Positions 1,619 to 22,129 of a stretch of DNA of 64,000 bases are shown here, one piece after another. Below the pieces are notes generated by a model. It did no database searches. It was given only the letters and a program-made list of their open reading frames with translations, and was not told the DNA's origin. The stretch is from Candidatus Hydrothermales bacterium (GTDB taxonomy: Bacteria; Hydrothermota; Hydrothermia; Hydrothermales; JAJRUZ01). Each line of letters starts with the position of its first letter. The first letter of the stretch is position 1. The stretch spans positions 1-64,000 of the forward strand of contig JBCNUW010000009.1 in the NCBI GenBank assembly GCA_039630575.1, read 5' to 3'. Both the position numbers and the translations under genes were made by a program.

Positions 1619-1630
1619 TGAAAACAAAAG

Positions 1631-1641
1631 GGTTCAAATCC
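1631..1641 (+). promoter_or_regulatory. T-loop-like 5'UTR motif GGTTCAAATCC (copy 1), in a perfect AAAGGG/CCCTTT hairpin
   Basis: Lies 25 nt upstream of the ATG at 1667; no SD in between. Confidence 0.7.
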
Positions 1642-1666
1642 CTTTACAAAGTTTTAACATACTAAT

Positions 1667-1990
1667 ATGAAAAGATTTTTAATATTTTTTCTTTTAACCT
1701 TCTTTAATGGAACCCTTAAAGCAGATTGGGTTGAAGGAAGTGATACCCTTACGCTATATGAAGTCAAAGAAAACTTTTTTTATTTTGAAGAGTACATGAT
1801 TCCTTTTAAAGGAGACTATACTTTACCTACCCTTATCCAGTCTAAAAAGTTTATAAATAGGTCAAATGAACTTGAAATTAAACTACCCGCAAAAGTTTAT
1901 ATTAAATACCTCTTAAACGTAACAGGAGAAGAAGATATTAAATTCCATGAAATAAAAATTATTTCTTTTGAATATATAAAGAGATTGTAA
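1667..1990 (+). CDS. Small exported hypothetical protein
   Basis: 107 aa ORF with an N-terminal signal-peptide-like segment. Confidence 0.7.
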   Translation: MKRFLIFFLLTFFNGTLKADWVEGSDTLTLYEVKENFFYFEEYMIPFKGDYTLPTLIQSKKFINRSNELEIKLPAKVYIKYLLNVTGEEDIKFHEIKIISFEYIKRL

Positions 1991-2005
1991 ACTGATTTTT
2001 CTATT

Positions 2006-2890
2006 TTGATGATGAAATATTTAATTCTTTCAACTTTTTTATTTTTAGTTTTTTGCAAAAGGGAAGTAAAGAAAGAAAAGGGTGAGCTCCTTTTTATAGA
2101 ATTTGCAGAAATTAATAATAAAAAACCATGTGTAGGTGACGTTTTAGGCGTAAATTATATCTTAAAAGGGGAAACTAAAGAGGCAAATGTAATTGTTGAA
2201 TGGTATGTAAACGATAAAAAGATTTTTGAGGGTTTAGATTTTAAATTAGAAGATGTAAAAAAGAAAGATAAAATTCATGCAGTTTTAATTCCATCCTTTA
2301 AGGGAGTCAAGGGGAAACCCTATTTTACAGAGTCTATTTTTGTGTCTAACAGCTTACCTGTTGTTGAGAGTGCCTCTTTAGATCCAAGTTTTATATACTC
2401 AAATACAGAGAAGGTTAGAGTAGTTCCAAAAGGTTATGATCCCGACGGGGAAAAGATTAATTTTTTTGCAAGATGGAGAATTGGCAATTTTTATCCGAGT
2501 GATTCTTCATTAGAAATTTCTCTTAAAAATTTGAAAGAAGGAGATACAGTAGAGGTATTTGTCTATGCAAGAGATAGTGAATCCCGATCGTATAGGTCTT
2601 ACTCCCTCCAAACTGTGGTTCAGAATTCTCCACCACAGATATATAAAGAGGAATTCTTTATTAAAGAAAATAAAATTTTTGTAAAATTTTTTGCAAAAGA
2701 TCCTGATAATGATAATTTAATTCTTGAGTTAATTAATTCAAATATTAAACCACTTGAGATAAAAGATAATGAACTTACACTTATATTTCCATATGACCAG
2801 AAGATAAATGAACTCAAATTAGATGTAAAGGTTTTAGATACAAAAGGTAATTATATACTGAAAAACCTTCTTTTAAATATTAAAAGATAG
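2006..2890 (+). CDS. Putative lipoprotein with tandem Ig-like domains
   Basis: Hydrophobic N-terminus ending in Cys; recurring NSxP, DPDGE/DPDND and W-x-V-N motifs of Ig-like repeats. Confidence 0.65.
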   Translation: MMMKYLILSTFLFLVFCKREVKKEKGELLFIEFAEINNKKPCVGDVLGVNYILKGETKEANVIVEWYVNDKKIFEGLDFKLEDVKKKDKIHAVLIPSFKGVKGKPYFTESIFVSNSLPVVESASLDPSFIYSNTEKVRVVPKGYDPDGEKINFFARWRIGNFYPSDSSLEISLKNLKEGDTVEVFVYARDSESRSYRSYSLQTVVQNSPPQIYKEEFFIKENKIFVKFFAKDPDNDNLILELINSNIKPLEIKDNELTLIFPYDQKINELKLDVKVLDTKGNYILKNLLLNIKR

Positions 2891-2964
2891 GGGAATTTAA
2901 TTAAGTTATTTTGTTTTTATTTTCCCTTGTTTATCTATTTATGTTTATAAACTTAAATTAAACC

Positions 2965-4122
2965 TTAATGAAGTGCCTCTATTCCAGGTAGACTGCCTTT
3001 TTCTATAAATTCAAGTGAAGCACCACCACCTGTTGAAACGAAAGAAATTTTATTTTCTAATTTTTGTTTTTTAATTACCGTTACCGTTTCTCCGCCTCCA
3101 CAAAGAGAAAAGGCTCCCTTTAAAGTTACTTCTGCTATTTTCTTAGCCACTTCATATGTTCCCTTTGCAAAAGTTCTATTTTCAAAAACACCCATTGGTC
3201 CGTTCCAGAAAATAGTCTTTCCCTTTGAAATTTCCTCTTTAAATATCTGAATAGACCTTTCTCCAATATCATAACCTGCATAACCTTCTGGAACTTCTTC
3301 GCCTTCCGTATATTTTTTACTTTCTGGTGAGTCAGAGTATCTTGTGTCTACTGCAACAACAAGTTTCTCTTCTGGTAACTTTTTAACTTCATCAATAAAC
3401 TTTTCGTCAAGTATAGATTTTCCAATACTTTTTCCTTTTGCTTTCCAAAAAGTGAACATCATACCTCCACCTATTAAAATCTTATCACATTTATCAATAA
3501 GGGTTTTTATAACTCCAATTTTATCTTCTACCTTTGCACCGCCAAGTATAGCTATAAAAGGTTTCTCAGGATTTTCTGTTATTTTCTTTAAGTTATTAAT
3601 TTCTTTTTCAAGTAAAAAACCGGCATACTTTTCTTCGAAGAGTTTTGGCAATGTGTAAACTGAGGTATGTTTTCTGTGAGAAGCAGCAAAGGCTTCATTT
3701 ACATATATATCTGCCAGTTCCCTCCATTTTTTAGCAAGTTCAATATCGTCTTTTTCTTCATTTTCTTCAAATCTTGTATTTTCAATAAGCAAAACTTCTC
3801 CTTCTTTCATTTCGTTTATTATCTTTATAACATTTTCACCATGTAACTCTTCAGTGAATCTTACTTTTTCCTTTAATAGTCTTTTTAATTTCTTTACAAC
3901 TGGCTGTAGAGAAAATTCAGGACTCCTTTTACCTTTAGGTCTTCCGAGATGGCTGGCTAATATTATTTTTCCACCTCTTTCGATTAAAAATTTTATTGTT
4001 GGAATAGTTTCTTTTATCCTGGTATCATCAAGAATTTTTCCTTCCTTGATCGGAACATTAAAATCAACTCTTAAAAAAATTCTTTTACCTTTTATATCAC
4101 CAATTTGATTTAAACTTTTCAT
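2965..4122 (-). CDS. pgk: Phosphoglycerate kinase
   Basis: RVDFNVP, SHLGRPKG, GGAKVEDK, WNGPMGVFE, STGGGASLE; SD AAGGAG upstream. Confidence 0.98.
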   Translation of the reverse strand: MKSLNQIGDIKGKRIFLRVDFNVPIKEGKILDDTRIKETIPTIKFLIERGGKIILASHLGRPKGKRSPEFSLQPVVKKLKRLLKEKVRFTEELHGENVIKIINEMKEGEVLLIENTRFEENEEKDDIELAKKWRELADIYVNEAFAASHRKHTSVYTLPKLFEEKYAGFLLEKEINNLKKITENPEKPFIAILGGAKVEDKIGVIKTLIDKCDKILIGGGMMFTFWKAKGKSIGKSILDEKFIDEVKKLPEEKLVVAVDTRYSDSPESKKYTEGEEVPEGYAGYDIGERSIQIFKEEISKGKTIFWNGPMGVFENRTFAKGTYEVAKKIAEVTLKGAFSLCGGGETVTVIKKQKLENKISFVSTGGGASLEFIEKGSLPGIEALH

Positions 4123-4135
4123 TTATAACTCCTTT

Positions 4136-5146
4136 TTATTCCTTTTCAGCCATAAACTCAAGCAAATCAACTACTCTTACTGAATATCCCCATTCGTTAT
4201 CATACCAACCAGCAACTTTAACAAGATTTTCAACAGTTTCTGTAAGTGTAGCATCAAAGATACAAGAATGGGGATTACCTATAAAATCTGAAGAAACAAG
4301 TGGCTCATCACAATATTCAAGATACTTAGGCATTTCTTGAGATGCCTTTTTGAAAGCCTCATTTACATCTTCTTTTTTCACTTCCCTTTCAACTATAGCT
4401 GTAAAATCGCATAAGGATACAGTTGGTGTTGGAACTCTTATGGCAACAGCTTTCAATTTACCTTTCAGTTCGGGATAAACAAGTTCTATTGCTTCAGCAG
4501 CTCCTGTGGAAGTTGGAATTATGTTTAAGGCAGCTGCTCTTGCCCTTCTTAAATCCTTATGAATTTGATCTAAGATCCTCTGATCATTTGTATAAGAGTG
4601 AATTGTAGTCATTTCTCCTTTTTGAATTTTGAAATTTTCGTGAACGACCTTTACAAGAAAAGAAAAGCAATTTGTAGTACAAGAGGCGTTTGATATAACA
4701 AAATGTTTTTTAGGATCGTACATATTATCATTTATTCCAAGCACAATAGTAACATCTGGTTTTGTACCTTTTCCAGGAGCAGTTATCAAAACTCTTTTCG
4801 CTCCAGCATCTATATGGGCTTGAGCCTTTGTCCTGTCTGTAAAAGCACCAGTTGCTTCAACTACATAATCAATTTCAAGATCTTTCCATGGCAGTTTTAC
4901 CGGATCCTTCTCTGAGAAAGTAAGTATTTTTTTGTTATTAATTACAAATCCATCTTTTTCAGTTTTTATTTCTTCTTCTGCAATTCTAAAAATTGAATCA
5001 TACTTATAGAGATGAGCAAGGGATTGGCTATCTGCAAGGTCATTTATTGCCACGAATTCAAGTTTCTTTCTCTTTAAACCTTCCTTTAAGACTTGTCTTC
5101 CAATCCTTCCAAAACCATTTATAGCAATTTTTACTTTTTTCTTCAT
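4136..5146 (-). CDS. gap: Type I glyceraldehyde-3-phosphate dehydrogenase
   Basis: INGFGRIGR, SNASCTTNC, WYDNEWGYS. Confidence 0.98.
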   Translation of the reverse strand: MKKKVKIAINGFGRIGRQVLKEGLKRKKLEFVAINDLADSQSLAHLYKYDSIFRIAEEEIKTEKDGFVINNKKILTFSEKDPVKLPWKDLEIDYVVEATGAFTDRTKAQAHIDAGAKRVLITAPGKGTKPDVTIVLGINDNMYDPKKHFVISNASCTTNCFSFLVKVVHENFKIQKGEMTTIHSYTNDQRILDQIHKDLRRARAAALNIIPTSTGAAEAIELVYPELKGKLKAVAIRVPTPTVSLCDFTAIVEREVKKEDVNEAFKKASQEMPKYLEYCDEPLVSSDFIGNPHSCIFDATLTETVENLVKVAGWYDNEWGYSVRVVDLLEFMAEKE

Positions 5147-5167
5147 TTTTCACTTTAATTTTAATTG

Positions 5168-5178
5168 GGATTTGAACC
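5168..5178 (-). promoter_or_regulatory. T-loop-like 5'UTR motif GGTTCAAATCC (copy 2)
   Basis: Lies 21 nt upstream of the gap ATG and downstream of a minus-strand TATAAT; no SD. Confidence 0.7.
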
Positions 5179-5253
5179 TTTAAATGAAAGATTATTATAA
5201 CTTAACATTTTTTTGAAAACAAAATAGTAAATTGACATATAATATCTTAAGAA

Positions 5254-5883
5254 ATGAAAAAATTCCTTTTTATTTTTTTAATAATTTTTGGGGCATGTTC
5301 TTTTAAAATTTTTAAAAGAACTAAACCAGAGGAATTTGGTATTGAAAGCTATTTTGCTCAAGGTGTTTATTATTTTTATAAGGGTAAATATGAGAAAGCC
5401 AGGTTCTATTTTAATAAGGTTCTATTTTCAGGAGAGATAAGGGAGTATACTGATGATGTGCAGTTTTACATTGCTAAGTCTTATTTTTTAGAAAAGCAGT
5501 TTGAAACTGCCTCATCGGAATATAACTTTCTTTTAAATCAATTTCCAAATTCTGAGCATTTGGAAGAAGCTGAATTTGATATTTTAAAAATTGAAATTTT
5601 AAAGGTTTCTTCACCTTCACATGAGACTGGTGAACTTGAAAAAGTTATACCTAAAATAGATAATTTTTTAAAAAAATACCCTAATTCGAAATTTAGTGAG
5701 GAATTGCTTGGATTAAAAAATACTGTTTTAAACATTTTAGCTGAGAAGATTTACTCCATAGCAAGACTTTATGAAAATTTAAAAAAATATTATTCAGCTG
5801 AGATTTATTATAAAGAGTTAATAGATAAATATCCAGACACTATATGGGCAGAAAAGGCAAGAAAAAAAATTAATAAAAAATGA
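5254..5883 (+). CDS. bamD: Outer membrane protein assembly factor BamD-like TPR lipoprotein
   Basis: Lipobox FGAC, TPR repeats, xYPxS motifs, C-terminal LAEKIYSIARLY...SAEIYY...YPDT. Confidence 0.85.
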   Translation: MKKFLFIFLIIFGACSFKIFKRTKPEEFGIESYFAQGVYYFYKGKYEKARFYFNKVLFSGEIREYTDDVQFYIAKSYFLEKQFETASSEYNFLLNQFPNSEHLEEAEFDILKIEILKVSSPSHETGELEKVIPKIDNFLKKYPNSKFSEELLGLKNTVLNILAEKIYSIARLYENLKKYYSAEIYYKELIDKYPDTIWAEKARKKINKK

Positions 5884-6455
5884 AAAAAATAGGAATATTC
5901 GGTGGAGCCTTTGATCCACCTCATATAGGCCATTTCTTAATAGCTCAAGATGTTTATGAAAAATTAGAACTAAACGAATTGTATTTTCTTGTCTCATACA
6001 GACCGCCTCATAGGCAAACAAAGGCAGAATTCGAAGATAGATTGAAAATGGTAGAGCTTATGTTGTCTGGATCGCCTTTTTATGTTTCTGACTTTGAATC
6101 TAAGCTTAAATTTGCACCAACCTATACAGTTCTTGTTTTAAATGAATGGAAAAAAAGAAAAAAGGATGAGGAACTGTACTTCATAATGGGCTTAGATCAA
6201 TTTTTAAATTTAGACAAATGGTATGAATACCAAACACTTTTTGAACTTTCAAAAGTTGTGGTTTGTAAAAGACAAAAGTGTGAAATTAAGGAAATTGCTT
6301 GCTATAAGGAAAAGGTAATTTTTCTTGATACAAGAATTGTTGAACTTTCGTCAAAAGAAATAAGGGCTAGAATAAGAGAAGGTAAAAGTGTACATCTTAT
6401 GGTTCATCCTGAAGTTGAAAATTTTATAAATGAAAAAGGACTTTATTTAAAATGA
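5880..6455 (+). CDS. nadD: Nicotinate-nucleotide adenylyltransferase
   Basis: IGIFGGAFDPPHIGH, FIMGLD, SSKEIR. Confidence 0.95.
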   Translation: MKKIGIFGGAFDPPHIGHFLIAQDVYEKLELNELYFLVSYRPPHRQTKAEFEDRLKMVELMLSGSPFYVSDFESKLKFAPTYTVLVLNEWKKRKKDEELYFIMGLDQFLNLDKWYEYQTLFELSKVVVCKRQKCEIKEIACYKEKVIFLDTRIVELSSKEIRARIREGKSVHLMVHPEVENFINEKGLYLK

Positions 6456-7363
6456 GACTCATTTATTCATCAAAATATGAAGTTGATATAGGTCCCCATG
6501 TTTTTCCAACCAAGAAGTATAGATTAATAAAAGAAAAGTTAATAGAAGAAGGTATTGTTAAAGAGTATGATTTTTTTGAGCCAGAACCAGAATCCTTTGA
6601 AGAATTGAAGATTGTTCATACTGAAGAGTATCTTAATGATTTAAAGAATTTGAGATGGACAAAAAGAACAATGTTTTCAGAGCTACCTTTGAATAAAGAA
6701 GTTGTGGATTTTTACCTTATCGGTGCAAGAGGAACTTATCTTGCTTCATTGGATGCTCTCCAGGAAGGGCTCGGAATACATGTTGGTGGTGGTTGGCATC
6801 ATGCTTTCTCTGATAAAGCTGAGGGTTTTTGCTACATAAATGATCTTGCCTATGCTGTAAAAAAATTAAAAAAAGAAAATAAGATTAAAAAAGCCTTAAT
6901 AATTGATCTTGATCTTCACCAAGGTAACGGTACAGCAAAAATTTTTGAAAATGATGAAGATGTTTTTACCTTTTCAATTCATCAAGAAGATTTGTATCCT
7001 GTACCAAAGCAAAAAAGTGATTTAGATATAGGTCTTTGGAGTGGTACTCAAGAAGAGGAATATCTTAAAGTACTTGAAGAAGCTCTTTTTAAAATATTTG
7101 AAAATAGAAGTTTCGATCTGATTTTATATCAAGCAGGAGCTGATCCTTACGAGAAGGATCTCCTTGGAAATTTAAAATTGACAAAAGAAGGTCTAAAAAA
7201 AAGAGACGAACTTGTAAGAAAATATACTCTTGAAAGAGGTTTTAAAATTGCAATAACATTAGGTGGTGGTTATTCTTCAGATCTCAGAGATTTAATTGAA
7301 ATTCACACAAACACTATAAAGGTGTTCCTATTATGGAAAAAAGAAAAACAATTAAAGATGTAA
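6452..7363 (+). CDS. Histone deacetylase family (Zn-dependent) protein
   Basis: GGWHHA, GFC, DLDLHQGNGT, GADP..D, GGGY. Confidence 0.95.
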   Translation: MRLIYSSKYEVDIGPHVFPTKKYRLIKEKLIEEGIVKEYDFFEPEPESFEELKIVHTEEYLNDLKNLRWTKRTMFSELPLNKEVVDFYLIGARGTYLASLDALQEGLGIHVGGGWHHAFSDKAEGFCYINDLAYAVKKLKKENKIKKALIIDLDLHQGNGTAKIFENDEDVFTFSIHQEDLYPVPKQKSDLDIGLWSGTQEEEYLKVLEEALFKIFENRSFDLILYQAGADPYEKDLLGNLKLTKEGLKKRDELVRKYTLERGFKIAITLGGGYSSDLRDLIEIHTNTIKVFLLWKKEKQLKM

Positions 7364-9362: not shown

Positions 9363-9375
9363 TTTGGAGGGGAAC

Positions 9376-10311: not shown

Positions 10312-10312
10312 A

Positions 10313-10387
10313 TGGGCGGGCGAGGATTTGAACCTCGGACCTCCTGTATGTGAGACAGGCGTTCTAACCATGCTGAACTACCCGCCC
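10313..10387 (-). tRNA. tRNA-Val(CAC)
   Basis: GGGCGGG/CCCGCCC acceptor stem, anticodon arm CCTGT-CTCACAT-ACAGG, T-loop GGTTCAAATCC; CCA not encoded. Confidence 0.95.
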
Positions 10388-10410
10388 TCAATAAAGTAAT
10401 TTTAAAATAA

Positions 10411-11676: not shown

Positions 11677-11696
11677 ATTGGTTAAAAATTGAAATT

Positions 11697-11707
11697 GGAT
11701 TAGAACC
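11697..11707 (-). promoter_or_regulatory. T-loop-like 5'UTR motif GGTTCTAATCC (copy 3)
   Basis: Lies 20 nt upstream of the rho ATG; one change at the variable T-loop position; no SD. Confidence 0.65.
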
Positions 11708-11715
11708 TTTTATTT

Positions 11716-12390
11716 TTATAACATTTTTGTATTGTTTATAAATAGTTCAAATTTCTGACCAAGATTTTTTGCAGCCATTGATGCAACAATCATCCTTTGT
11801 AAAAAAATTTCAAAATATTCCATAACAGGAGATATTTTTGTGTCTATCTCTATATCAAATCTTATTACTTTTTTTTCTGGAAAAACAATTACATTTGATT
11901 TTTTTGCTGAATAATTTACCCTATCATGAATGTCTGTCTTTATGTCAAATTTTTCTTTTCTAACCCTTTCTCTGTGTACATCTGATTTATCGGCAATAAT
12001 TAAAGCTGAAGTTAAAGCACCTGTAGGTATTCCATCTTCCTCATGATGATTTCCAATAGCTTGAGCCACTTCAATTACCTCATCAATGGGCATACCAAGT
12101 TCAGTTAAAAGTTGATGAGCAATTAAGGCTCCAAATTGGGCATGATGTTCTCTATGTATAACATTTCCTATATCATGTAAAAAACCAGCTATTTCAGCAA
12201 GTTCAGCCTTTCTCTCAGGATATTTTAGTTCCCTTAAAATTTTACCTGCTGTTTCTCCTACATATTTTGAGTGCCTCAGCCCATGTTCTGTATAGCCAAG
12301 CTTCTCCATATATCTATCTGCTTCCTCAATATATCTTAATACCCTTTTTTCTTTTAAAAGAACTTTTAATGTTATGACTTTTTTTCCCAT
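11716..12390 (-). CDS. HD-domain phosphohydrolase
   Basis: TEHGLRH, LHDIGN, HH, ADKSD. Confidence 0.9.
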   Translation of the reverse strand: MGKKVITLKVLLKEKRVLRYIEEADRYMEKLGYTEHGLRHSKYVGETAGKILRELKYPERKAELAEIAGFLHDIGNVIHREHHAQFGALIAHQLLTELGMPIDEVIEVAQAIGNHHEEDGIPTGALTSALIIADKSDVHRERVRKEKFDIKTDIHDRVNYSAKKSNVIVFPEKKVIRFDIEIDTKISPVMEYFEIFLQRMIVASMAAKNLGQKFELFINNTKML

Positions 12391-14930: not shown

Positions 14931-15003
14931 ATCTAAGGAATTTGGTAATAATTTTTTAAATAAGGGAAAGAACTAAACACCTTTAAGATTTATTCTTTAA
15001 AAA

Positions 15004-15075
15004 AGCGGGAGACGGGATTTGAACCCGCGACCCCTACCTTGGCAAGGTAGCGCTCTACCGCTGAGCTACTCCCGC
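15004..15075 (-). tRNA. tRNA-Gly(GCC)
   Basis: GCGGGAG/CTCCCGC acceptor stem, anticodon loop TTGCCAA, T-loop GGTTCAAATCC, discriminator U; no CCA. Confidence 0.96.
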
Positions 15076-15114
15076 AGATTTTAAATTATAAATTTATTTT
15101 CTAAAATTTTCAAA

Positions 15115-16647
15115 TTAAAAAATTATATCCCTAATTTCTTCAGGATGAATTATGTTAAAGTGATAGTAAAGTTCGTACAATTCATTTGGTTTTAAATTTA
15201 CTTCAAAATAATATTTTCCTTCTGGCTTATCCTCTCTAAAAGGCTTTTTTGAAAATTCAATACCGTTAATTACTATATCAGGGTTATTAGAAACAGGAAC
15301 CTCTGCTATTAGTGTTCCCTTTATTTCTATTTTTCTTTCATTTTTAACAGTAATCTTATAGGAAAATTTTCTTTTTATTTTCTTTTCAAAAATTCCGCTT
15401 TTTTCTATCTCAGATTTGATTAAAATATATTCTGTTTTTACATAGGGATCTTCACCAAAGTAAAACCTTAAAGTATCACCAGGATAAATGGTATTTATTC
15501 TTTTTTTCCCTATGTATTCTTCTTCCAAAAATATATTACCTTCGCCTTCAATTAGAATTTCCTTTGTATCCAACACACCCTTTGCTAAAAGAAAACCGAA
15601 TCTATAATTTCGAGGTATGATTGTATAATGGAAATAAGCCGGAATTTCATAATTTTTCACAAAAAGAATAACCCCCTTTTCATCTGAAGGGATAGTTGCT
15701 CTGTATGGAAAATTGTAATGAAAGGAAGTGTAAAGCTCTTCTTCCTTAACAGGTTCTTCTGCTATAGCTTCAGCTATAGCTTGTTGTACTATGAAAGCCT
15801 CTTTTTGTAAATAAGTTTCAGCTGCTTTAATTTGAGGGATTCTAGTTCTAATAACCCACCTTAAAGGAGTTGGTTCCATAATTGTTTTTGGAAAGTGTGT
15901 TGATAGAGCGATATTTACATTTTCAAAGTCTTTACCAGTAAATTGAAAAAGCTTTGAATGAAGGTCAATTTCAACTTTTTTTTTCTCAGGAAGTCCGTTT
16001 ATTTTGTATAAAAGGTTATAACCACTTTTTGATATTATAAAATAACTTAGTATCAAATTTGCTTGTGTTTCAATTTTGGAATTTATGTTAAGTGTTAGGA
16101 TAAGTTCTTCAATTCCTATTGGGTGAAAGTTTAAAAGTTTATTTTGAATTTTTGTTTTTGTAAATTCAAGTTCTTTTATTTTTTCTTCAAGTTTTCTTAT
16201 TTCAATTTCTAACAAAGTTACTTTGTTTATTACTATACTGAGTGCTGTGTTTATGTTTTTTTCAATAATTTCTTTTTCAAGAAATTCCTTAGATTCCTTT
16301 TCAGAGTAAGATGATTTGAAACTTTCGATAAATTCTATGCCCTTTTTTAGATTTTCTTTTTTTATTTTTAGTTTTTCAATTGTATCTTGTAAAAAGTCGA
16401 GTGAGTCCTGGAGAGGTTTCAAAAAATCTCTGTATTTTAAATAGGTTTTTCTTTTTAGTGTTGTGCTTACAATTTCAGCCTCTTTTAGTTCCACTTTTAT
16501 GGAAGTTGTATCAACAATTGGCAAAAGTTTTAAAGTGAAAGTATTTAGACCCTTTTTAAGATTTATTTCTAATTTTTCGGTAACGAGTGCACCTTGCGGG
16601 TAAAAAATAACTGATTCTATTTTTAAAAATAAAAATAAAGTAATCAT
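15115..16647 (-). CDS. DUF4139/DUF4140 (MuiA-like) protein
   Basis: IESVIFYPQGALV, a coiled coil, Q.TG.DF..V...LST, TIPSD, FGEDP.V. Confidence 0.8.
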   Translation of the reverse strand: MITLFLFLKIESVIFYPQGALVTEKLEINLKKGLNTFTLKLLPIVDTTSIKVELKEAEIVSTTLKRKTYLKYRDFLKPLQDSLDFLQDTIEKLKIKKENLKKGIEFIESFKSSYSEKESKEFLEKEIIEKNINTALSIVINKVTLLEIEIRKLEEKIKELEFTKTKIQNKLLNFHPIGIEELILTLNINSKIETQANLILSYFIISKSGYNLLYKINGLPEKKKVEIDLHSKLFQFTGKDFENVNIALSTHFPKTIMEPTPLRWVIRTRIPQIKAAETYLQKEAFIVQQAIAEAIAEEPVKEEELYTSFHYNFPYRATIPSDEKGVILFVKNYEIPAYFHYTIIPRNYRFGFLLAKGVLDTKEILIEGEGNIFLEEEYIGKKRINTIYPGDTLRFYFGEDPYVKTEYILIKSEIEKSGIFEKKIKRKFSYKITVKNERKIEIKGTLIAEVPVSNNPDIVINGIEFSKKPFREDKPEGKYYFEVNLKPNELYELYYHFNIIHPEEIRDIIF

Positions 16648-16697
16648 TTTAAATTTTAGGGAATTTTTTTGATTATTTCAATTAAAATAATTTAATT

Positions 16698-17165
16698 ATG
16701 AGAAAATTTATATTTACTATTTTAACAAGGCTTTTAAAGTTATTTGCTCCATATTTAAAAACTCCTTTTTTAACTGTGGATGGTATACTGGAAGTTTATG
16801 ATGAATATGATAATTTTGTTGGTATAGCACTGATTGAGAGAAAGAATCCACCTTTGGGTTATGCACTTCCAGGAGGTTTTGTTAATTATGGAGAACCTCC
16901 TGAAGAGGCAATATTAAGGGAAGTAGAAGAAGAAACAGGTGCAAAGGCACATATAGTAAAACTTTTAGGTGTATACGGAGATCCTAAAAGGGATCCAAGG
17001 TTCCATACAGTGACATGTGTGTATCTACTAAAAACAAAAGATAAGTTAAAAGCCTCATCTGATGCAAAAAAAGTTTTTGTTTTTAAGTTAAGCGATATTC
17101 CATATGAAAAAATTGTTTTTGATCATTCAAAGATAATAAGGGATTATTTAAAGTTAAAGTACTGA
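16698..17165 (+). CDS. NUDIX hydrolase (ADP-ribose pyrophosphatase-like)
   Basis: Nudix box PGGFVNYGE..EEAILREVEEETG; RDPR; FDH. Confidence 0.93.
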   Translation: MRKFIFTILTRLLKLFAPYLKTPFLTVDGILEVYDEYDNFVGIALIERKNPPLGYALPGGFVNYGEPPEEAILREVEEETGAKAHIVKLLGVYGDPKRDPRFHTVTCVYLLKTKDKLKASSDAKKVFVFKLSDIPYEKIVFDHSKIIRDYLKLKY

Positions 17166-17169
17166 AAAC

Positions 17170-17838
17170 TTAATATTTTAGAGCGTTTTTATGAATAAAG
17201 ACACCTTTTGAGGAAAATTTTATAGTTTGAGTTTTTTTAAATTCTTTTAATATTCTTGATACGCTTTCTCTTGAGCAGCCGACCATAGAGGCTATATCTT
17301 TTATTTTAAAATCTTTTTTAATAAATATATACTCTCCAATTTTTTCTCCCTCTTTTAAAGCTTTTTCTATAAAGAATCTTGCAACTTTGCCTGACAGATC
17401 TAAAAAAAATAAAGAGCTCATTTTTTCATTTGTTTTTCTTATTCTATGACCCATTTCCCTAATTATTGAAATGAGTATTTCAGGGTGTTTAATTAACTTA
17501 TATAAAAGATCTTCCTTCGAAAATATTGTTACTTTTGTGTTTTCCAGTGCTGTAACTCTTGCAGTTCTGTACTCTTCACCGAAGAAACCCAGTTCTCCAA
17601 AAAAATCACCTTCCTTTAAATTTGTGATAACAATTTCTTTTCCTTTATCAGAAAACAGTGAAACTTTTACTTCTCCAGAATTTATTATATAAAGAGAATC
17701 TCCTCTTTCTCCTTCATGAATTATTATATCCCCTTTTTTAAACTCTTTTTTTATTCCAAGTTTTTCGATTACTTTTTTTTCTTTTTTACTTAATTGGCTG
17801 AAAAGTTCTAACTTATTTGACGTAGTTGACTTTTTCAT
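17170..17838 (-). CDS. Crp/Fnr family transcriptional regulator
   Basis: cNMP-binding FFGELG..RTARV; HTH IASMVGCSRESVSR. Confidence 0.93.
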   Translation of the reverse strand: MKKSTTSNKLELFSQLSKKEKKVIEKLGIKKEFKKGDIIIHEGERGDSLYIINSGEVKVSLFSDKGKEIVITNLKEGDFFGELGFFGEEYRTARVTALENTKVTIFSKEDLLYKLIKHPEILISIIREMGHRIRKTNEKMSSLFFLDLSGKVARFFIEKALKEGEKIGEYIFIKKDFKIKDIASMVGCSRESVSRILKEFKKTQTIKFSSKGVFIHKNALKY

Positions 17839-17876
17839 GTTAATTAATTATAATTTATAAAAAAACATAAATAAAA

Positions 17877-17887
17877 GGTTCAAATCC
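17877..17887 (+). promoter_or_regulatory. T-loop-like 5'UTR motif GGTTCAAATCC (copy 4)
   Basis: Lies 18 nt upstream of the rpmE ATG and downstream of TATAAT at 17849-17854; no SD. Confidence 0.7.
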
Positions 17888-17905
17888 ATTTAAAGAAAAG
17901 AAAAA

Positions 17906-18175
17906 ATGAAACCTAAAATACATCCAGAATATGTGAAGGCAATAATCGAGTGTGCCTGTGGTAATAAGGTAGAGACACGATCTACAAAAAAGTTTATAAA
18001 AGTTGAAATATGTTCAAATTGTCATCCCTTTTTCACAGGAAAAGAAAAACTTGTTGATACGGAAGGTAGAGTTGAGAAGTTCAGAAGAAAGTATGGTGAA
18101 AAAGCTAAGAGTGAAGTTAAAAAGGTGAGAGCAAGGAGTAAGAGGAAAAAATTGGAAGAAGAAGTTAAAAAATGA
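17906..18175 (+). CDS. rpmE: 50S ribosomal protein L31 (Zn-binding type)
   Basis: [29 protein letters not shown]. Confidence 0.97.
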
Positions 18176-18528
18176 GTTTACCTGAACCTATCGGTCCTTA
18201 TTCTATTTATAGAGAAGCTGGAGATTTTATTTTTATTTCAGGACAAATAGGTATTGATTATGAAAAGGGAGTAATTCCTGAAAGTATAGAGGAACAAACA
18301 GAGTTAGTTTTAAAAAATATAAAGAATATATTAGAAAGTTTAAATTTAACATTCGATAATGTAATAAAAAGTACGATATTTTTAAAAGATATAAATGATT
18401 TTCAAAAGGTTAATGAAATTTATTCAAAGTATTTTAATAAACCTTATCCAGCCCGATCTACTGTGGAAGTAAGTGCACTACCTAAAAATGCGAAGGTTGA
18501 GATAGAAATTGTTGCTTTCAAGGGATGA
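18172..18528 (+). CDS. RidA/YjgF family enamine deaminase
   Basis: [28 protein letters not shown]. Confidence 0.93.
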
Positions 18529-18953
18529 AAAAGACAAAAAAAATAAGGGTTTTAATAGCAAAGCCAGGTTTAGATGGTCATGATAGGGGAGCAAAGGTTG
18601 TAGCAAGAGCACTTAAGGATGCTGGAATGGAGGTTATTTATACTGGATTACATAAAACAGCAGAAGAGATAGTTGAAGCTGCTATTCAGGAAGATGTGGA
18701 TGCTATTGGTCTTTCCATACTTTCTGGTGCTCATATGACCTATTTTCCAAAAGTTTTAAAATTAATGAAAGAAAGGGGGCTTCATGATGTTCTTCTTTTT
18801 GGAGGAGGAATAATTCCTGAAGAAGATAAAAAGAAGCTTAAAGAAATGGGTGTTGGAGAATTGTTTGGTCCAGGTACACCCTTAAAAGAAATAATAGAAT
18901 ATGTTGAAAAATGGGTGGAGGAAAGAGATAAGAAGAAGGAAAAAACAGTTTAA
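18525..18953 (+). CDS. Acyl-CoA (methylmalonyl-CoA) mutase cobalamin-binding subunit
   Basis: [31 protein letters not shown]. Confidence 0.93.
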
Positions 18954-19557
18954 TTTTTTAAGATTTAGTTATTTTTTAAAATTTCTTTTATTAGCTTTTC
19001 TATTTTGTTCTTATGAGGTTGAAGTTAAAGAGGTAGTAGATGGAGATACCTTTATCACCTATTCAGGTGAAAGGGTAAGGCTTATAGGTATTGATACTCC
19101 TGAGGAGGGTAGGTTTTATTATAATGATTCAAAAAATGCTCTTAAAGATCTTATATTGGGCAAGAAAGTGAGATTAGAGTTTGATATTGTAAAAAAAGAT
19201 GTCTATGATAGAATTTTAGCTTACGTCTTTTATGATACCCTTTTTGTTAATGATTACATGTTAAAAAATGGTTATTCATATATTTATACTTTTCCGCCGA
19301 ATCTAAAGTATTTTTCAAAGTTTAAAAAGTCTCTTGATTTAGCGATAAAAAATAAAAGGGGTATGTGGAAAAATTTTTATGAGGAGAAAGAGATTTTTAT
19401 TGGTGATCCTGAAAAAATGGAATTTCATAGTAAAGATTGTAAGGAAGTATATAAAATTGGAGATTTTAACAGAATAATATTTAAATCTTCCAAGGAGGCT
19501 CTTCTTGAGGGCTTCCATCCTCATAAATCATGTAATCCCGTTAAATTTTTTGAATGA
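18901..19557 (+). CDS. Thermonuclease (SNase) family protein with C-terminal Ada-like metal-binding domain
   Basis: [26 protein letters not shown]-terminal FHSKDC...[10 protein letters not shown]. Start codon uncertain. Confidence 0.88.
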
Positions 19558-21785
19558 TTCTCTTTTTTATTTTATTTCAATTAAAGGATATTGACCTTTT
19601 TACAGAAACTTCAAGGAGAGAAAGTTGGGGTATTTATAAGTTAAAAAGGGTTGAAGAGTTGTTAAAGAATAATTTTGTCCATGCAAAGCAAGATTTGCTT
19701 GATATTTTAGATTCAAATCTTTCTGATTCGATAAAGGGAATTGCTTGTGAAAAGTTAATGTTTTTACCTCCAGACAGTTTTCAAAATTCCCTTTTAGCTT
19801 TAAATTATCTTCTTGATCTTACTTTTTATGAGCGAAGGAGAGAGGCGCTTTCTGTTTTATTCAATTACTTTAAAAATAAGGGAGATTACAGATCGTGTGA
19901 GAAGATTCTAAGAAGAATTAGTTCAGATTATCCCCTTTATAGGGAAGAATCACAGATTGAAATTTTTGAAATTTCTCTAAGAAATAAAAATTTTGATAAC
20001 ATTTATCCTTTGATTAGTGTTATCAAACGTACAAGACCTGATCTTTATCTTCTATATCTCTCTGAGATAGGAGATACTGTATCTTTCCTATTTAATTATG
20101 ATACTTTAGAAAATTTAAAAAATTTTTTTTATTACGATTCTCTTTCCAAGATTTTTAGCAACTATCATGGGTTTTTTAAAAGTTTCAGAGAGGACCCTGA
20201 TTCTGAAAATTTTAAAATTTGGAAAAATTTTTACTTTTTTAAGAAAGATAAATTTAAGGCAGATTCTTTAAGAGAATTTATTTATGAAAATTTTGGTTTT
20301 ATTTTACCCAGATTTCCTGATTCCTCATACATTAAAGAGATCCTTTTTAATCTTCTTAAAGATAAGAAAGTTCAATGGGATGAGGTGTACAAAAGGGGTC
20401 TTTATGATATTATTTATCACTTTGCTGGATCACGAAATAGATATTATTTGCCCTCTCTTTATTTTTTAAATTTTTTGAATCAGGAGATAAACATACCTGA
20501 AGATTTAACAGGTGATTCACTTTTTGTTTCTCTTTTGCTTTTTAAAAAATACAAAAAAGGTATAAACTTTGTTCCTTCTGGTTATGAGTATCTTAAGGGT
20601 AGATTTTATTTTGAAAGGGGGTATATTGATAGTGCAATTTATTTTCTTAGATTATCAAGGTATTACAATGACATAGCCCTTTTGATAAATTTACTTTCTC
20701 TAAAGGGTGAAACTTTAGCAGTTGATTCTTTGTTAAAAAAATATGATTTTTTTAATTTAATAAAATATCGTAATGGAAGGGAAGGTATTATTCATTATCT
20801 TAATCTTAAAGAAAATGATGAAATTTTATTTTCTTTTTACAACTATTTGAAAAATTTTGATGGAGATCTTTTAAGAAAGAATTATAAATTTTTTACTCGT
20901 TATCTAGAAAAGAGTGGAAGGTACAGTGAGTTATTCAGGTTTGCTATTTTTCTAGATGATGATACGTTGAAAATTAAGTCGTTAATTTATTTAAATAAAC
21001 TTGAGTTTGCAGAGTTTTATTTTAAAAGAAATATGACAAAAAGTAAGTTTATTGTTGAGAGTTTTTTTAATTATTATGCTAATTTGGCCAACATAGAGGG
21101 AATTAATAATCTGAAAATACTTTTAGGGGAAAATGATGAATTAAAAGATAAAAAGAAATGGATTGATTCAGTTTTTAGTAATTATGAAAGAGCAATAAAA
21201 TTTATTAAAGAGCAAAAGTATCACAGGGCTGATTCAATTCTTAATATTTTGAAAGATGATGTTTATTTAAAAAGAAAAGTTCTCTTTGATATTGCAAATA
21301 TAAATTTTGTTACAGGGAAGCTTCATGAAGCTAAGAAGTTATTTCGATATCTTTTTGAAACTTATAAAGATGAATTTGCATTATTTAATTTAACACTTGT
21401 TTTGAGAAGATTAGAAGATGATTCCACAATATATTTTTATAAGGTTTATCTTGATTATTCAAGAGGAAAACCGGATTATTACTATGCTGTTAAAAGGTTA
21501 GCTTATATTTATCTTGATAAGGGCAAATATGAAAAATCAAGGGAACTTATGGAATTAATTTACGGTTTGTCGCCAGATACTTTTGAGGAAAAGGAATTAA
21601 AGTTTTTTTATATGCAGGTATTAAAAACAAATCTTGATTTTGAAAGAAGTATGAGAGAAGGTTTTATGGTATACCTTAATTATCCGAAGGACGATCTTTT
21701 TACAAAGGCAGCTTTCGAAGAGTCTATAGAGATTTCCAAAATTTTAAAGTTTAATTATAAAAATTTAATAAATTTAAAAAGATAG
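19554..21785 (+). CDS. Large exported hypothetical protein with TPR-like helices
   Basis: 743 aa; short hydrophobic N-terminus; TPR-like segments (YLKGRFYFERG, LAYIYLDKGKYEKS). Confidence 0.65.
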   Translation: MILFFILFQLKDIDLFTETSRRESWGIYKLKRVEELLKNNFVHAKQDLLDILDSNLSDSIKGIACEKLMFLPPDSFQNSLLALNYLLDLTFYERRREALSVLFNYFKNKGDYRSCEKILRRISSDYPLYREESQIEIFEISLRNKNFDNIYPLISVIKRTRPDLYLLYLSEIGDTVSFLFNYDTLENLKNFFYYDSLSKIFSNYHGFFKSFREDPDSENFKIWKNFYFFKKDKFKADSLREFIYENFGFILPRFPDSSYIKEILFNLLKDKKVQWDEVYKRGLYDIIYHFAGSRNRYYLPSLYFLNFLNQEINIPEDLTGDSLFVSLLLFKKYKKGINFVPSGYEYLKGRFYFERGYIDSAIYFLRLSRYYNDIALLINLLSLKGETLAVDSLLKKYDFFNLIKYRNGREGIIHYLNLKENDEILFSFYNYLKNFDGDLLRKNYKFFTRYLEKSGRYSELFRFAIFLDDDTLKIKSLIYLNKLEFAEFYFKRNMTKSKFIVESFFNYYANLANIEGINNLKILLGENDELKDKKKWIDSVFSNYERAIKFIKEQKYHRADSILNILKDDVYLKRKVLFDIANINFVTGKLHEAKKLFRYLFETYKDEFALFNLTLVLRRLEDDSTIYFYKVYLDYSRGKPDYYYAVKRLAYIYLDKGKYEKSRELMELIYGLSPDTFEEKELKFFYMQVLKTNLDFERSMREGFMVYLNYPKDDLFTKAAFEESIEISKILKFNYKNLINLKR

Positions 21786-22028
21786 TTAGACTATTTTTCT
21801 TGTTTTGTGATAAAGAGATATTTTTGCTCTTTTAGCATATTTTATTGCACCTTTAGTGAAGCCGCTTGTTGATACTATTGTTTTAATTCCTCTTTTTTTC
21901 ATTTTTTTTATTTCAGTTAATGGAAGCGGTCTAGACCAGTTTCTAACAGCTCTTTGAGTTTTTCTTTTTTGAGCTTTTTTTGTGACTATTTTTTTCTTTT
22001 TTCTTACTGTTTTTTTTACTCTTGCCAT
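21786..22028 (-). CDS. Small, very basic protein with an Mrr-like restriction endonuclease C-terminal fragment
   Basis: 80 aa with about 30 K/R and one acidic residue; IVSTSGFTKGAIKYAKRAKISL resembles the Mrr_cat C-terminus. Has its own promoter and T-loop motif. Confidence 0.7.
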   Translation of the reverse strand: MARVKKTVRKKKKIVTKKAQKRKTQRAVRNWSRPLPLTEIKKMKKRGIKTIVSTSGFTKGAIKYAKRAKISLYHKTRKIV

Positions 22029-22047
22029 TTTTGTTACATTTTTTACA

Positions 22048-22058
22048 GGATTTGAACC
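22048..22058 (-). promoter_or_regulatory. T-loop-like 5'UTR motif GGTTCAAATCC (copy 5)
   Basis: Lies 19 nt upstream of the ATG at 22028 and downstream of a minus-strand TTGAAT-N17-TATAAT promoter; no SD. Confidence 0.7.
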
Positions 22059-22129
22059 TTTTATGTAGTGAAAAATTTTAATTAATTATAACATTTTATT
22101 TTAACATATTCAATATATCTTCACTTTAA

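Follow-up and report, generated by a model that had tools for sequence, protein, structure and literature searches.

Within a single family of uncultured bacteria from hot springs, a short sequence with the T-loop of tRNA and its closing pairs lies in the sense orientation at a set distance before start codons, at sites where orthologous genes of other families carry strong Shine-Dalgarno (SD) sequences. We put the probability at about one half that a minimal T-arm RNA module has here taken over the role of strong SDs and promotes or positions SD-independent initiation. The sequences show its anatomy and distribution, its anchoring to start codons, the replacement of SDs and a parallel with real tRNAs; from them we infer that it acts as RNA, affects initiation and has a binding partner. 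The window, as the whole analysed stretch of DNA is called here, comprises 64,000 nt of Candidatus Hydrothermales bacterium (contig JBCNUW010000009.1, positions 1 to 64,000). Its genus and a sister genus form the family, hereafter f1, within the phylum, and f2 is the sister family; the six f1 genomes compared are kin and represent a single origin.

T-loop copies in the window

The window holds seven exact matches to GGTTCNAATCC (Table 1), where 100 dinucleotide shuffles gave an expectation of 0.11 and a largest count of one. The rarity claimed in the first-pass annotation is thus borne out, as is the identity of the 11-mer to the T-loops of tRNA-Val and tRNA-Gly, which account for two of the seven. 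The other five are non-tRNA, and their reported placement as intergenic, sense copies at 18 to 25 nt before start codons was reproduced, each start being an ATG. The two hairpins described earlier also hold, with copy 1 presenting a 7-nt loop on a perfect 6-bp stem and copy 4 folding imperfectly. Pfam confirmed the identities of gap, rho and rpmE (L31) and returned no family match for ORF1667 or the 80-aa basic protein.

Table 1. Coordinates of T-loop mimics, genuine T-loops and promoter-like sites in the window
Feature	Position	Strand	Distance to start codon
T-loop mimic copy 1, AAAGGG-TTCAAAT-CCCTTT hairpin (core 11-mer 1631-1641)	1627..1645	+	25 nt from core end to ORF1667 ATG (1667-1669)
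T-loop mimic copy 2	5168..5178	-	21 nt to gap ATG (5146-5144, minus strand)
T-loop mimic copy 3 (GGTTCTAATCC)	11697..11707	-	20 nt to rho ATG (11676-11674)
T-loop mimic copy 4	17877..17887	+	18 nt to rpmE ATG (17906-17908)
T-loop mimic copy 5	22048..22058	-	19 nt to ATG (22028-22026) of 80-aa basic protein
tRNA-Val(cac) genuine T-loop, same 11-mer (reference only, not a mimic)	10324..10334	-	
tRNA-Gly(gcc) genuine T-loop, same 11-mer (reference only, not a mimic)	15015..15025	-	
Promoter-like site TTGACT-17-TATAAT (11/12 consensus match), upstream of copy 4/rpmE	17826..17854	+	
Promoter-like site TTGAAT-17-(TG)TATAAT (10/12), upstream of copy 5/80-aa gene	22085..22113	-	

Two of the five mimics have an operon-type placement, with a co-directional ORF ending shortly before them. 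Ahead of copy 1, ORF 2..1618 ends 8 nt before the hairpin and 12 nt before the core 11-mer; copy 3 is operon-internal, ORF 11716..12390 ending 8 nt before it, and the 'TATAAA' there is the end of this upstream coding frame (...ATGTTATAA). Copy 2 lies in a divergent intergenic region of 107 nt, 15 nt downstream of a TATAAT. A TATAAT just upstream had been proposed for gap, rpmE and the basic protein alike. The promoter scan agrees for the latter two, whose sites are the two best matches of their region, where promoter-like sites are overall no more numerous than expected by chance; for gap it gave only TTTTCA-17-AATAAT (9/12), the TATAAT nevertheless being present in the sequence. If the two sites in Table 1 are used, copy 4 would start about 16 nt and copy 5 about 20 nt into the transcript. 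The TATAAT upstream of rpmE is kept in the orthologous regions of f1 and f2.

Anchoring and T-loop code across the genome

With gene starts set by a simple first-ATG rule and SDs scored as 4-mer matches, the 1.89 Mb genome contains 165 non-tRNA copies of GGTTCNANNCC, 116 of which are followed after 5-59 nt by an ATG opening an ORF of 60 aa or more. The spacing peaks at 18-23 nt (73 of the 116), and all start-anchored copies are in the sense orientation. Five permuted control patterns gave 97 matches in sum, only 14 of them upstream of an ATG. Roughly 115-140 genes per f1 genome are marked in this manner. Named among 50 sampled genes (60 scanned, 10 tRNA-linked ones left out) are EF-Tu, S12, L7/L12, RRF, IF-3, DnaK, RpoD and central-metabolism enzymes, kinds of genes that would usually be highly expressed.

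The single-mismatch variants enriched before ATGs differ only at positions 6, 8 and 9 of the 11-mer, which correspond to T-loop positions 57, 59 and 60, and the invariant nucleotides of the T-loop are exactly kept. What is conserved is the GUUCNANNC code, the consensus quoted for TruB/Pus4. The commonest mimic variant, GGTTCAAATCC, is also the most frequent among the genome's own tRNA T-loops (19 of 42); at position 57 the mimics tolerate a pyrimidine, a type of base absent there from all 42 tRNA T-loops (A or G only). One further flanking pair covaries (76/113 paired versus 53.9 +/- 4.0 after shuffling; none of 2000 shuffles reached 76), and G:T and A:C are equally frequent at it, seven each, so that it carries no RNA-specific wobble signal. 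The covariation test on 113 copies supports a stem of 3 bp only, and the 5-bp T-arm stem is not conserved. The hairpin appears in the 37 °C minimum-energy fold of only 46 of the 113 copies; by itself it would be unstable in a thermophile, which implies a partner.

Compared with the tRNA T-arm (Rfam RF00005), the mimics share the loop consensus GG-TTC-N-A-NN-CC and the closing pairs G53-C61 and G52-C62, but they have a stem of about 3 bp, lack the acceptor, D- and anticodon arms and sit in mRNA leaders. An acceptor-like stem was not found: when the 13 nt that follow the T-arm were paired with the 44 nt upstream, the best helix averaged 6.38 bp, versus 6.28 bp with shuffled partners. No other tRNA-like feature was found conserved around the copies, and neither ARAGORN nor Rfam detected the mimics.

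For the 94 mimic genes of 100 aa or more, the end of an upstream ORF running in the same direction overlaps the motif in 16 cases and lies 0-30 nt ahead of it in 25; another 25 copies are in divergent intergenic regions. That 41 of 94 are operon-internal argues for a role at the RNA level and, with the two best promoter matches ahead of copies 4 and 5, supports the predicted location of the mimic in transcribed leaders or between genes of the same operon.

An unexpected parallel comes from real tRNAs. Of the 44 tRNA genes in the window's genome, 19 are followed by a co-directional ATG ORF that starts 7-27 nt past the tRNA 3' end, which puts the T-loop 20-40 nt from the ATG, within 20-28 nt for all but two. 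These ORFs have an SD in 1/19 cases, versus 73/209 for genes that begin 5-30 nt downstream of a CDS (p = 0.009; scored gene set). The baseline for random positions is 259/4000. The arrangement recurs in relatives (14/32, 5/35, 7/32 and 2/10 tRNA genes), also in families without the mimic, and most of the tRNA genes concerned do not encode CCA.

Relation to Shine-Dalgarno sequences and to relatives

The first-pass annotation had contrasted SD-less motif genes with motif-free genes bearing an SD. The example of pgk stands (AAGGAG present, motif absent); however, of the 55 genes in the window that reach 100 aa, only 13 have any SD-like 4-mer, so the absence of an SD is common and not special to motif genes. 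The expected anti-correlation emerges genome-wide at spacings of 23 nt or less, where an SD-like 4-mer accompanies 8/68 copies, close to the 10% of random windows, versus 400/1423 non-motif genes (Fisher p = 0.002). At spacings of 24-40 nt, 16 of 26 copies keep one, and about a quarter of all copies also have an SD, further downstream than the motif. The notion that the motif acts in place of an SD has to be qualified to this extent. Most genes of the genome have neither signal, and the majority of its SD-less genes lack the motif, so the motif is not needed for SD-independent initiation. Moreover, the anti-SD tail of 16S rRNA (CCUCC) is intact in f1 and SD-like 4-mers still peak at -10/-11, which makes the mimic an added signal rather than a sign that the SD mechanism was lost.

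AGGTTCAAATCC occurs 10-43 times per genome in all six f1 genomes, and no more than eight copies were counted in any of 266 genomes from elsewhere in the phylum. At rho, rpmE and gap, the motif is present and an SD absent in 6/6 f1 genomes, and the motif changes only at free loop positions; in f2 and nearly all other relatives recovered, the same genes carry an SD of the GGAGG type, 5-9 nt from the ATG. The comparison with f2 covers 400 kb of one genome, plus these three genes in 30 genomes. In the 400 kb sample, an SD precedes 16/19 orthologues of mimic genes versus 33/110 orthologues of genes that have neither signal in the window's genome (p = 1e-5), and the motif is absent from all 19. The sample does hold 17 copies of GGTTCNANNCC, 10 in tRNAs and seven that are not leader-like. 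Outside f1, tRNAs at the rho, rpmE and gap sites were found only before rpmE in two genomes of another family (f9), where the ATG lies 2-3 nt after tRNA-Glu.

Like an SD, the mimic is on the sense strand at a set distance before the start, occurs also inside operons and is interchangeable with its counterpart between orthologues. Unlike an SD, it has no complementarity to the CCUCC tail, lies 18-23 nt instead of 5-9 nt from the ATG and can co-occur with a nearer SD. SD-independent initiation on A-rich leaders is known from Bacteroidota, and f1 resembles them in its low SD usage despite an intact anti-SD and in its A/U-rich leaders before the ATG. To our knowledge, the leaders of Bacteroidota have not been reported to carry a discrete conserved motif of the T-loop kind.

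Mechanism and competing explanations

We propose that the element acts in cis, as an RNA module, in mRNA leaders and intergenic gaps of operons. It consists of a canonical 7-nt T-loop (U54 U55 C56 N57 A58 N59 N60) closed by G53-C61, G52-C62 and the one covarying pair, and its 3' end precedes the start codon by about 18-23 nt. In f1 it has replaced the strong SDs borne by orthologues in other families, and it would promote or position SD-independent initiation on the A/U-rich stretch downstream. Its reader may be a factor that shares determinants with TruB, TrmA/TrmFO or TrmI, or the ribosome itself. The genome encodes TruB, a GCD14/TrmI-family and a U5-methyltransferase-family protein. The search for a partner yielded none. 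TruB, S1 and S21 are each encoded once, at similar sizes in f1 and other families, and f1-specific 16S changes are confined to ordinary variable helices. The original interpretation survives in part, favoured by the sense, start-anchored copies, the T-loop code and the SD swap, with the qualification on SDs given above.

It is possible, though we consider it rather unlikely, that the copies are processing signals, with a T-arm-recognising nuclease (RNase Z-like or other) cutting a set distance after the T-loop, as after real tRNAs, and freeing mRNAs with A/U-rich leaders of about 7-12 nt that are translated without an SD. The real tRNAs at the same distance before SD-less starts, in the window's genome and its relatives, agree with this, as does tRNA-Glu before rpmE in f9; because most such tRNA genes lack CCA, cleavage at the tRNA 3' end is required, and the mRNA then makes up the trailer. 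A precedent is found in the t-elements of Arabidopsis mitochondria, which, according to PMC1920247, were detected by the motif GGTTCRANYCC, match the ends of mRNAs and have been proposed as signals for RNase Z/P. There too, a T-loop consensus in mRNA precursors lies near gene starts and real tRNAs and mimics are used alike, but t-elements are tRNA-like structures with a non-canonical cloverleaf, whereas our mimics have no acceptor-like helix. All six f1 genomes encode an additional RNase Z-like protein (245-248 aa) for which no counterpart was found in f2. However, this protein matches only positions 2-148 of the RNase Z profile (130 bits, below the cut-off of 293), seems by our reading to lack the stretch holding the flexible arm that binds the T-arm, and is also present in 29 mimic-free genomes, for example in 5/5 of family f8. 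RNase Z and RNase P need a stacked acceptor/T helix, and in the mimics covariation stops at one pair. In addition, about seven of the 16 overlapping copies have the motif end at least 10 nt before the upstream stop (a tally that still included tRNA-linked genes), and a cut there would cost the upstream gene its stop codon.

Less probable still, the copies could be mainly substrates or decoys of the T-loop enzymes (pseudouridine-55, m5U54, m1A58), serving mRNA stability at high temperature or regulation with no direct ribosome recruitment. The conserved GUUCNANNC code and the presence of the three enzymes named above suit this reading, and the sites used by TruB/Pus4/TRUB1 in mRNA follow the same sequence-plus-hairpin code. 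T-loop-like m1A sites of TRMT6/61A are a related case. The known GUUCNANNC sites, however, are eukaryotic, scattered along transcripts and mostly sub-stoichiometric, while the mimics are bacterial, number about 130 per genome, keep a fixed spacing to the start codon and stand in for SDs. According to PMC13492117, E. coli TruB acts slowly in vitro on a stem-loop of only 3 bp with the consensus (0.3 times the tRNA rate), and bacterial TruB targets only tRNAs; TRUB1 is reported to act on mRNA through the code (PMC5340967). The enzymes are not special to f1, and modification by itself leaves the 18-23 nt ruler, the SD swap and the spacing of real tRNAs unexplained.

An element read in DNA, whether an operator, a promoter or discriminator element or the roadblock of a lineage-specific DNA-binding protein governing a large regulon of growth genes, is improbable. 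The lack of preference for G:U over A:C at the flanking pair would allow weak palindromic DNA recognition, the 25 of 94 copies in divergent regions are where promoters must be, and the gene set resembles a growth regulon. Against it, anchored copies are all sense, the positions that vary coincide exactly with the free ones of a T-loop, 41 of 94 copies overlap or closely follow (by 30 nt or less) a co-directional ORF, rpmE orthologues place the motif at varying distances from the conserved TATAAT (about 17 to 24 nt by our count of the sequences), and real tRNAs take the same place. Functionless remnants of tRNA genes or mobile elements, suggested by the identity to the commonest T-loop, are strongly disfavoured given the absence of further conserved tRNA-like features, the anchoring beyond controls, the orthologous sites kept in six genomes with changes only at free loop positions, and the SDs that hold these sites outside f1 except before rpmE in the two f9 genomes.

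The proposed initiation module probably arose as a stripped-down form of an older, class-level arrangement in which real tRNA genes lie 7-27 nt before SD-less starts, and in f1 it looks like a hitherto undescribed signal of gene expression.

T-loop motifs ahead of start codons

The 11-mer GGTTCNAATCC, identical to a tRNA T-loop, occurs seven times in the 64-kb window against 0.11 matches expected. Two of the seven are the T-loops of tRNA-Val and tRNA-Gly, and the other five are all intergenic and lie in the sense orientation of the next gene. These five start-anchored copies had been described in the first-pass annotation, and their exact count, positions and spacing were all borne out (see the table below). 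The identities of gap, rho and rpmE (L31), the named genes among the five, are backed by Pfam; for ORF1667 and the 80-aa basic protein no Pfam family scored above its cut-off. Relaxing the motif yielded zero extra copies within the window.

In the assembly from which the window comes (G000; 1.89 Mb, 95 contigs, 30% G+C), the exact pattern GGTTCNAATCC is present in 77 copies, 25 of them in tRNAs called by ARAGORN. Two of the remaining 52 resemble the ends of uncalled tRNAs or tmRNA, and 47 are followed 13-49 nt downstream by an ATG opening at least 40 aa. The search pattern GGTTCNANNCC gave 207 copies, 42 in tRNAs (assigned from the 45 tRNA/tmRNA genes parsed in G000) and 165 elsewhere, while five controls made by permuting its letters matched 13-23 times each (97 in total). 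The genome-wide scan outside tRNAs, with distances to the start, that the first-pass annotation had called for upholds the anchoring: for 116 of the 165 copies, an ATG that opens 60 aa or more follows at a distance of 5-59 nt, as against 14 of the 97 control matches (0-5 per pattern), and the spacing is 18-23 nt in 73 of the 116. Among the 49 non-anchored copies, several precede short ORFs (e.g., the L34 gene) or GTG/TTG starts, and others fall within coding sequence. Gene starts and Shine-Dalgarno (SD) sequences were called by simple rules throughout.

Genes with a non-tRNA copy upstream (mimic genes) were named with NCBIfam for the first 60, in contig order, of 111 genes, 10 of the 60 being linked to a real tRNA instead. 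Besides gap, rho and L31 from the window, they include genes for EF-Tu, S12, L7/L12, RRF, IF-3, DnaK, RpoD, pyruvate-phosphate dikinase, FBP aldolase/phosphatase, malate and isocitrate dehydrogenases, ribonucleotide reductase, a pilin, secreted proteases and thiolases, which we take to be typical abundant proteins. The IF-3 gene (infC) combines the mimic with an ATG start. The 80-aa basic protein of the window (P0001) is very rich in lysine and arginine, with only weak FdhD-NarQ and Mrr_cat tails, and its gene has a T-loop leader together with a strong promoter-like site.

The surroundings of the copies were surveyed for 94 mimic genes which, with 17 tRNA-linked genes, make up the 111 (ORFs of at least 100 aa with simple-rule starts). 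At 16 of the 94 the copy reaches into the end of an upstream ORF running in the same direction, and it follows the stop codon of such an ORF by 0-30 nt at 25, by 31-80 nt at 18 and by more than 80 nt at nine; 25 copies stand in divergent intergenic regions and one has no upstream gene. Copies 4 and 5 lie downstream of their region's two best sigma-70-like matches, TTGACT-17-TATAAT and TTGAAT-17-TATAAT. A sigma-70 promoter element or an operator would keep a set position relative to the -10/-35 hexamers and would hardly be expected between closely spaced operon genes; 41 of the 94 copies overlap a co-directional ORF or follow its end by at most 30 nt, and the distance from the conserved TATAAT to the motif varies among rpmE orthologues. 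In the window itself, copies 1 and 3 lie 12 and 8 nt past the ends of their upstream ORFs, and a 'TATAAA' earlier noted before the rho copy (copy 3) proved to be the tail of the ORF upstream of it. This context argues for action as RNA. At copies 4 and 5 the motif would stand about 16-20 nt into the transcript if the two promoters are used, a placement we can only infer because promoter-like sites are overall at chance level in this AT-rich region.

Features discussed in the text (C numbers are contigs of G000; spacing is from the motif 3' end to the ATG)
Feature	Coordinates	Strand	Remark
Motif copy 1		sense	25 nt before ORF1667
Motif copy 2		sense	21 nt before gap
Motif copy 3		sense	20 nt before rho
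Motif copy 4		sense	18 nt before rpmE (L31)
Motif copy 5		sense	19 nt before the 80-aa basic protein gene
P0001 gene	window 21786-22028	-	80-aa basic protein
S1 gene (rpsA)	G000:C67:57718-59406	-	mimic 39 nt before ATG
tRNA followed by ORF	C2:40480-40573		example in G000
tRNA followed by ORF	C18:22973-23056		example in G000
RNase Z-like protein gene	G000:C78:10557-11291 (L286:2058-2795)	+	245 aa; metallo-beta-lactamase fold

Anatomy of the element

In tRNA T-arm numbering, the motif letters G52, G53, U54, U55, C56, A58, C61 and C62 are invariant and positions 57, 59 and 60 are free; the single-mismatch variants enriched before ATGs differ only at 11-mer positions 6, 8 and 9, which are the same three. 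The motif contains the 7-nt loop U54-U55-C56-N57-A58-N59-N60 with its closing pair G53-C61, and its pattern of conservation is that of the tRNA T-loop. Moreover, the bases immediately outside GG and CC covary with each other, being paired in 76 of 113 copies versus 53.9 +/- 4.0 in shuffles (z = 5.5), a value attained by 0 of 2000 shuffles. Further out, pairs 2-6 of the 113 copies remain at shuffle level, so that a 3-bp stem is supported, with a single covarying pair beyond GG/CC, and not the 5-bp T stem of a tRNA. Wobble pairing leaves the choice between RNA and DNA unsettled since the covarying pair is G:T as often as A:C (7 each). The minimum-energy fold at 37 C includes the hairpin in 46 of the 113 copies. 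A search for acceptor-like pairing of the 13 nt following the hairpin with the 44 nt preceding it gave a mean best helix of 6.38 bp, compared to 6.28 bp in shuffles. Because one pair covaries and no acceptor-like helix is found, the element is a minimal T-arm of about 13 nt and not a tRNA-like domain. The Rfam search proposed in the first-pass annotation returned four tRNA matches in the 64-kb window and no other family at its gathering score; with ARAGORN included, these four real tRNAs are the only cloverleaves (acceptor, D and anticodon arms) obtained.

Such a hairpin is close to the substrate code of the pseudouridine synthases TruB/Pus4/TRUB1. In PMC13492117, GUUCNANNC is quoted as the consensus for TruB/Pus4, in a hairpin with a stem of 2-3 bp or more, and a 3-bp GUUCNANNC hairpin is modified in vitro by E. 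coli TruB at 0.3 times the tRNA rate. The motif carries GUUCNANNC in a hairpin loop, with the 3-bp stem supported.

Exchange with Shine-Dalgarno sequences

The window's family (f1; six genomes, two genera) keeps the conventional partner of the SD: 16S rRNA, taken from three f1 relatives as none is contained in the G000 assembly, has the canonical end GGATCACCTCCTTTCT. In G000 the SD-like 4-mers start and peak at -10/-11, and therefore SD pairing is still in use. The motif itself has no GGAGG-like core and no complementarity to the CCUCC tail, and its 3' end lies 18-23 nt before the ATG rather than the 5-10 nt of an SD. By the same rule, SD usage is 28% of called starts in G000 versus 43% in 400 kb of one genome of a second family (f2), with a background of 10% in random windows; in G000 it is low despite the canonical anti-SD of f1. 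An SD-like 4-mer precedes 13 of the 55 window genes, and most G000 genes have neither SD nor motif.

The anti-correlation of motif and SD put forward in the first-pass annotation holds for one spacing and is reversed for another. SD-like 4-mers are found at 8 of 68 mimic genes with a spacing of 23 nt or less (Fisher p = 0.002 compared with the 400 of 1423 non-motif genes of G000) and at 16 of 26 with a spacing of 24-40 nt (p = 0.0006 in the same comparison). From these frequencies there are two classes of mimic, one with the T-loop alone at about 20 nt and one with the T-loop followed by an SD. The S1 gene has an AGGAGG SD between its mimic and its ATG.

The 12-mer form of the motif is present in 10-43 copies per genome in all six f1 genomes and in at most four in each of 25 other genomes of the class; none of the phylum's 266 other genomes has more than eight. 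Upstream regions of rho, rpmE and gap orthologues were recovered from 31 genomes. In the six f1 genomes, which are kin and count as one origin, all three genes have the motif, with changes only at 57, 59 and 60, and no SD, whereas f2 and nearly all other recovered relatives have a GGAGG-type SD 5-9 nt before the ATG. Exceptions to this are limited to a few poorly placed starts, three rpmE loci of family f9 (two directly behind a tRNA, one without SD) and two rpmE loci of f5. In f2 and f9, rho directly follows the upstream gene, whose stop codon overlaps the SD (TTTAGGAGG); f1 has instead an insert of 35-45 nt carrying the T-loop. One assembly (G003, 8% contamination) contains a second rpmE with an f2-type SD leader (L063, G003:C151), probably from a contaminating f2-like contig.

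The same exchange appears beyond these three genes when G000 is compared with the 400-kb f2 sample, in which GGTTCNANNCC gives 17 copies, 10 in tRNAs and seven not leader-like. The f2 orthologue has an SD for 16 of 19 mimic genes (12 of 14 at short spacing) and for 38 of 52 G000 genes that have an SD themselves, versus 33 of 110 genes with neither signal (p = 1e-5, mimic against neither); none of the 19 f2 orthologues of mimic genes has the motif. For these leaders, comparison with the outgroups shows the SD to be ancestral and the T-loop to be derived.

tRNA-linked starts, candidate readers and meaning

Real tRNAs may have been the source of the arrangement. In G000, 19 of 44 tRNA genes have, 7-27 nt past their 3' end, the ATG of an ORF that runs in the same direction and spans at least 60 aa, compared to 259 of 4000 random positions. 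The T-loop-to-ATG distance at these tRNAs is 20-40 nt, all but two falling within 20-28 nt, and overlaps the spacing of the mimic. The majority of these tRNA genes lack an encoded CCA, and the window's four tRNAs are not of this kind. An SD is present in only one of 19 G000 genes (at least 100 aa) lying 5-30 nt after a tRNA versus 73 of 209 equally near a CDS (p = 0.009), and in two of 28 tRNA-followed genes of relatives. Among four relatives (G005, G006, G008 and G012), the tRNA-then-ORF order was found at 14 of 32 examinable tRNAs in an f2 genome, two of 10 in another f2 sample and five of 35 in an f4 genome, all three without the mimic, and, within f1, at seven of 32 in its second genus. 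f1 and f2 have several tRNA-ORF pairs in common that agree in anticodon and have ORFs of comparable length. In two f9 genomes (L045, L048; G023, G028) the rpmE ATG lies 2-3 nt past the 3' end of tRNA-Glu, and this mRNA would be virtually leaderless after tRNA 3' processing. We read the mimic as a portable, stripped-down form of an older arrangement in which a tRNA stands before an SD-less start.

With its tight ruler to the ATG, its operon-internal copies and its exchange with SDs, the element is most economically explained by a role in start-site use, to which we assign a probability of about 0.5. Its reader would have to take both a complete tRNA and an isolated T-loop on a stem of 3 bp and to rely on the identity bases of the T-loop; candidates would be T-arm readers such as TruB, TrmA/TrmFO and TrmI, or a ribosomal site. 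RNase Z and RNase P need a stacked acceptor/T helix and for this reason fit less well, which tells against the main rival, improbable in our judgment, of a t-element-like processing signal that leaves short leaders. The t-elements of plant mitochondria have the motif GGTTCRANYCC and coincide with mRNA ends, according to PMC1920247; the motif has a T-loop of this type, although looser at positions 57 and 60, and lacks the acceptor-type helix of the tRNA-like fold by which a t-element would direct RNase Z/P.

Start-site use could be taken further, as a tentative and rather doubtful proposal, to a second bacterial code of ribosome recruitment without base pairing. Some 20 nt ahead of the AUG, a free T-loop would bind the ribosome directly, with the platform, the mRNA-exit region or, in place of an E-site tRNA elbow, the L1 stalk as examples of docking sites; alternatively, it would bind a T-arm reader sitting on the ribosome. 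Both routes would bring the start codon into the P site. Such a code would go back to co-transcripts of tRNA and mRNA, with the tRNA body as the original upstream anchor, and in f1 would have displaced strong SDs at more than 100 genes of the usually highly expressed kind.

No trans-factor was found by copy number and size, in 16S differences or in an RNase Z-like protein. G000 encodes TruB, a TrmI-family protein and a U5-methyltransferase-family protein; all 31 relatives have TruB, S1 and S21 in one copy each and of comparable length, and none of the three stands out. The motif finds its best 16S rRNA complement at the universal 5' end, GGGTTTGATCC (10/11 including one G:U, duplex -13.8 kcal/mol), likely a chance match and presumably buried in helix 1 and the central pseudoknot. 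The 64 fixed columns that distinguish f1, counted against five f2 sequences only (two f8 loci left out), cluster in three variable stretches, which we take to be the h8/h9, h26 and h39/h40 regions in E. coli numbering, and none of them resembled a T-loop receptor. In f1 the presumed helix 26 exceeds that of f2 by 2 nt (L001-L003), a difference not linked to the motif.

The RNase Z-like protein (245-248 aa) occurs in six of six f1 and five of five f8 genomes, was not found in f2-f7 or f9-f15, and totals 35 of 272 genomes of the phylum; with 29 of these lacking the mimic, it is a lead only. Its first 150 residues match RNase Z at 130 bits against a cut-off of 293, and by our reading of the sequence it appears to lack the T-arm-binding flexible-arm region. 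The two ORFs downstream of its gene (282 and 236 aa) match no NCBIfam family. On viral contigs, the motif was inside a phage tRNA at 39 of 80 loci among the matches listed; L377 (GC 0.50, six T-loops in called tRNAs), the only locus listed with two leader-like copies, looks like a case of uncalled tRNAs.

The usual accounts of bacterial start-site selection invoke SD pairing, AUGs without a leader, or A/U-rich leaders that lack structure and are read with protein S1. Full-text literature searches led to the TruB/Pus4 code and to t-elements; they turned up no description of a T-loop motif ahead of start codons in bacteria and no paper combining Shine-Dalgarno with WOR-3, and none of the papers listed dealt with tRNA-linked SD-less starts. 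The motif, which trades places with the SD from one orthologue to another, offers what may be a discrete, structured, tRNA-derived signal. As such it would found a new class of expression signals and serve as a natural experiment in which a lineage rewires its ribosome-binding code while the anti-SD is kept. SD-trained gene callers and ribosome-binding-site models will mis-score starts in these genomes, and the motif is a candidate expression part for thermophiles, short and portable. Moreover, it would link tRNA biology, from T-arm readers to tRNA 3' processing and tRNA-mRNA co-transcripts, with the translation of bacterial mRNA.
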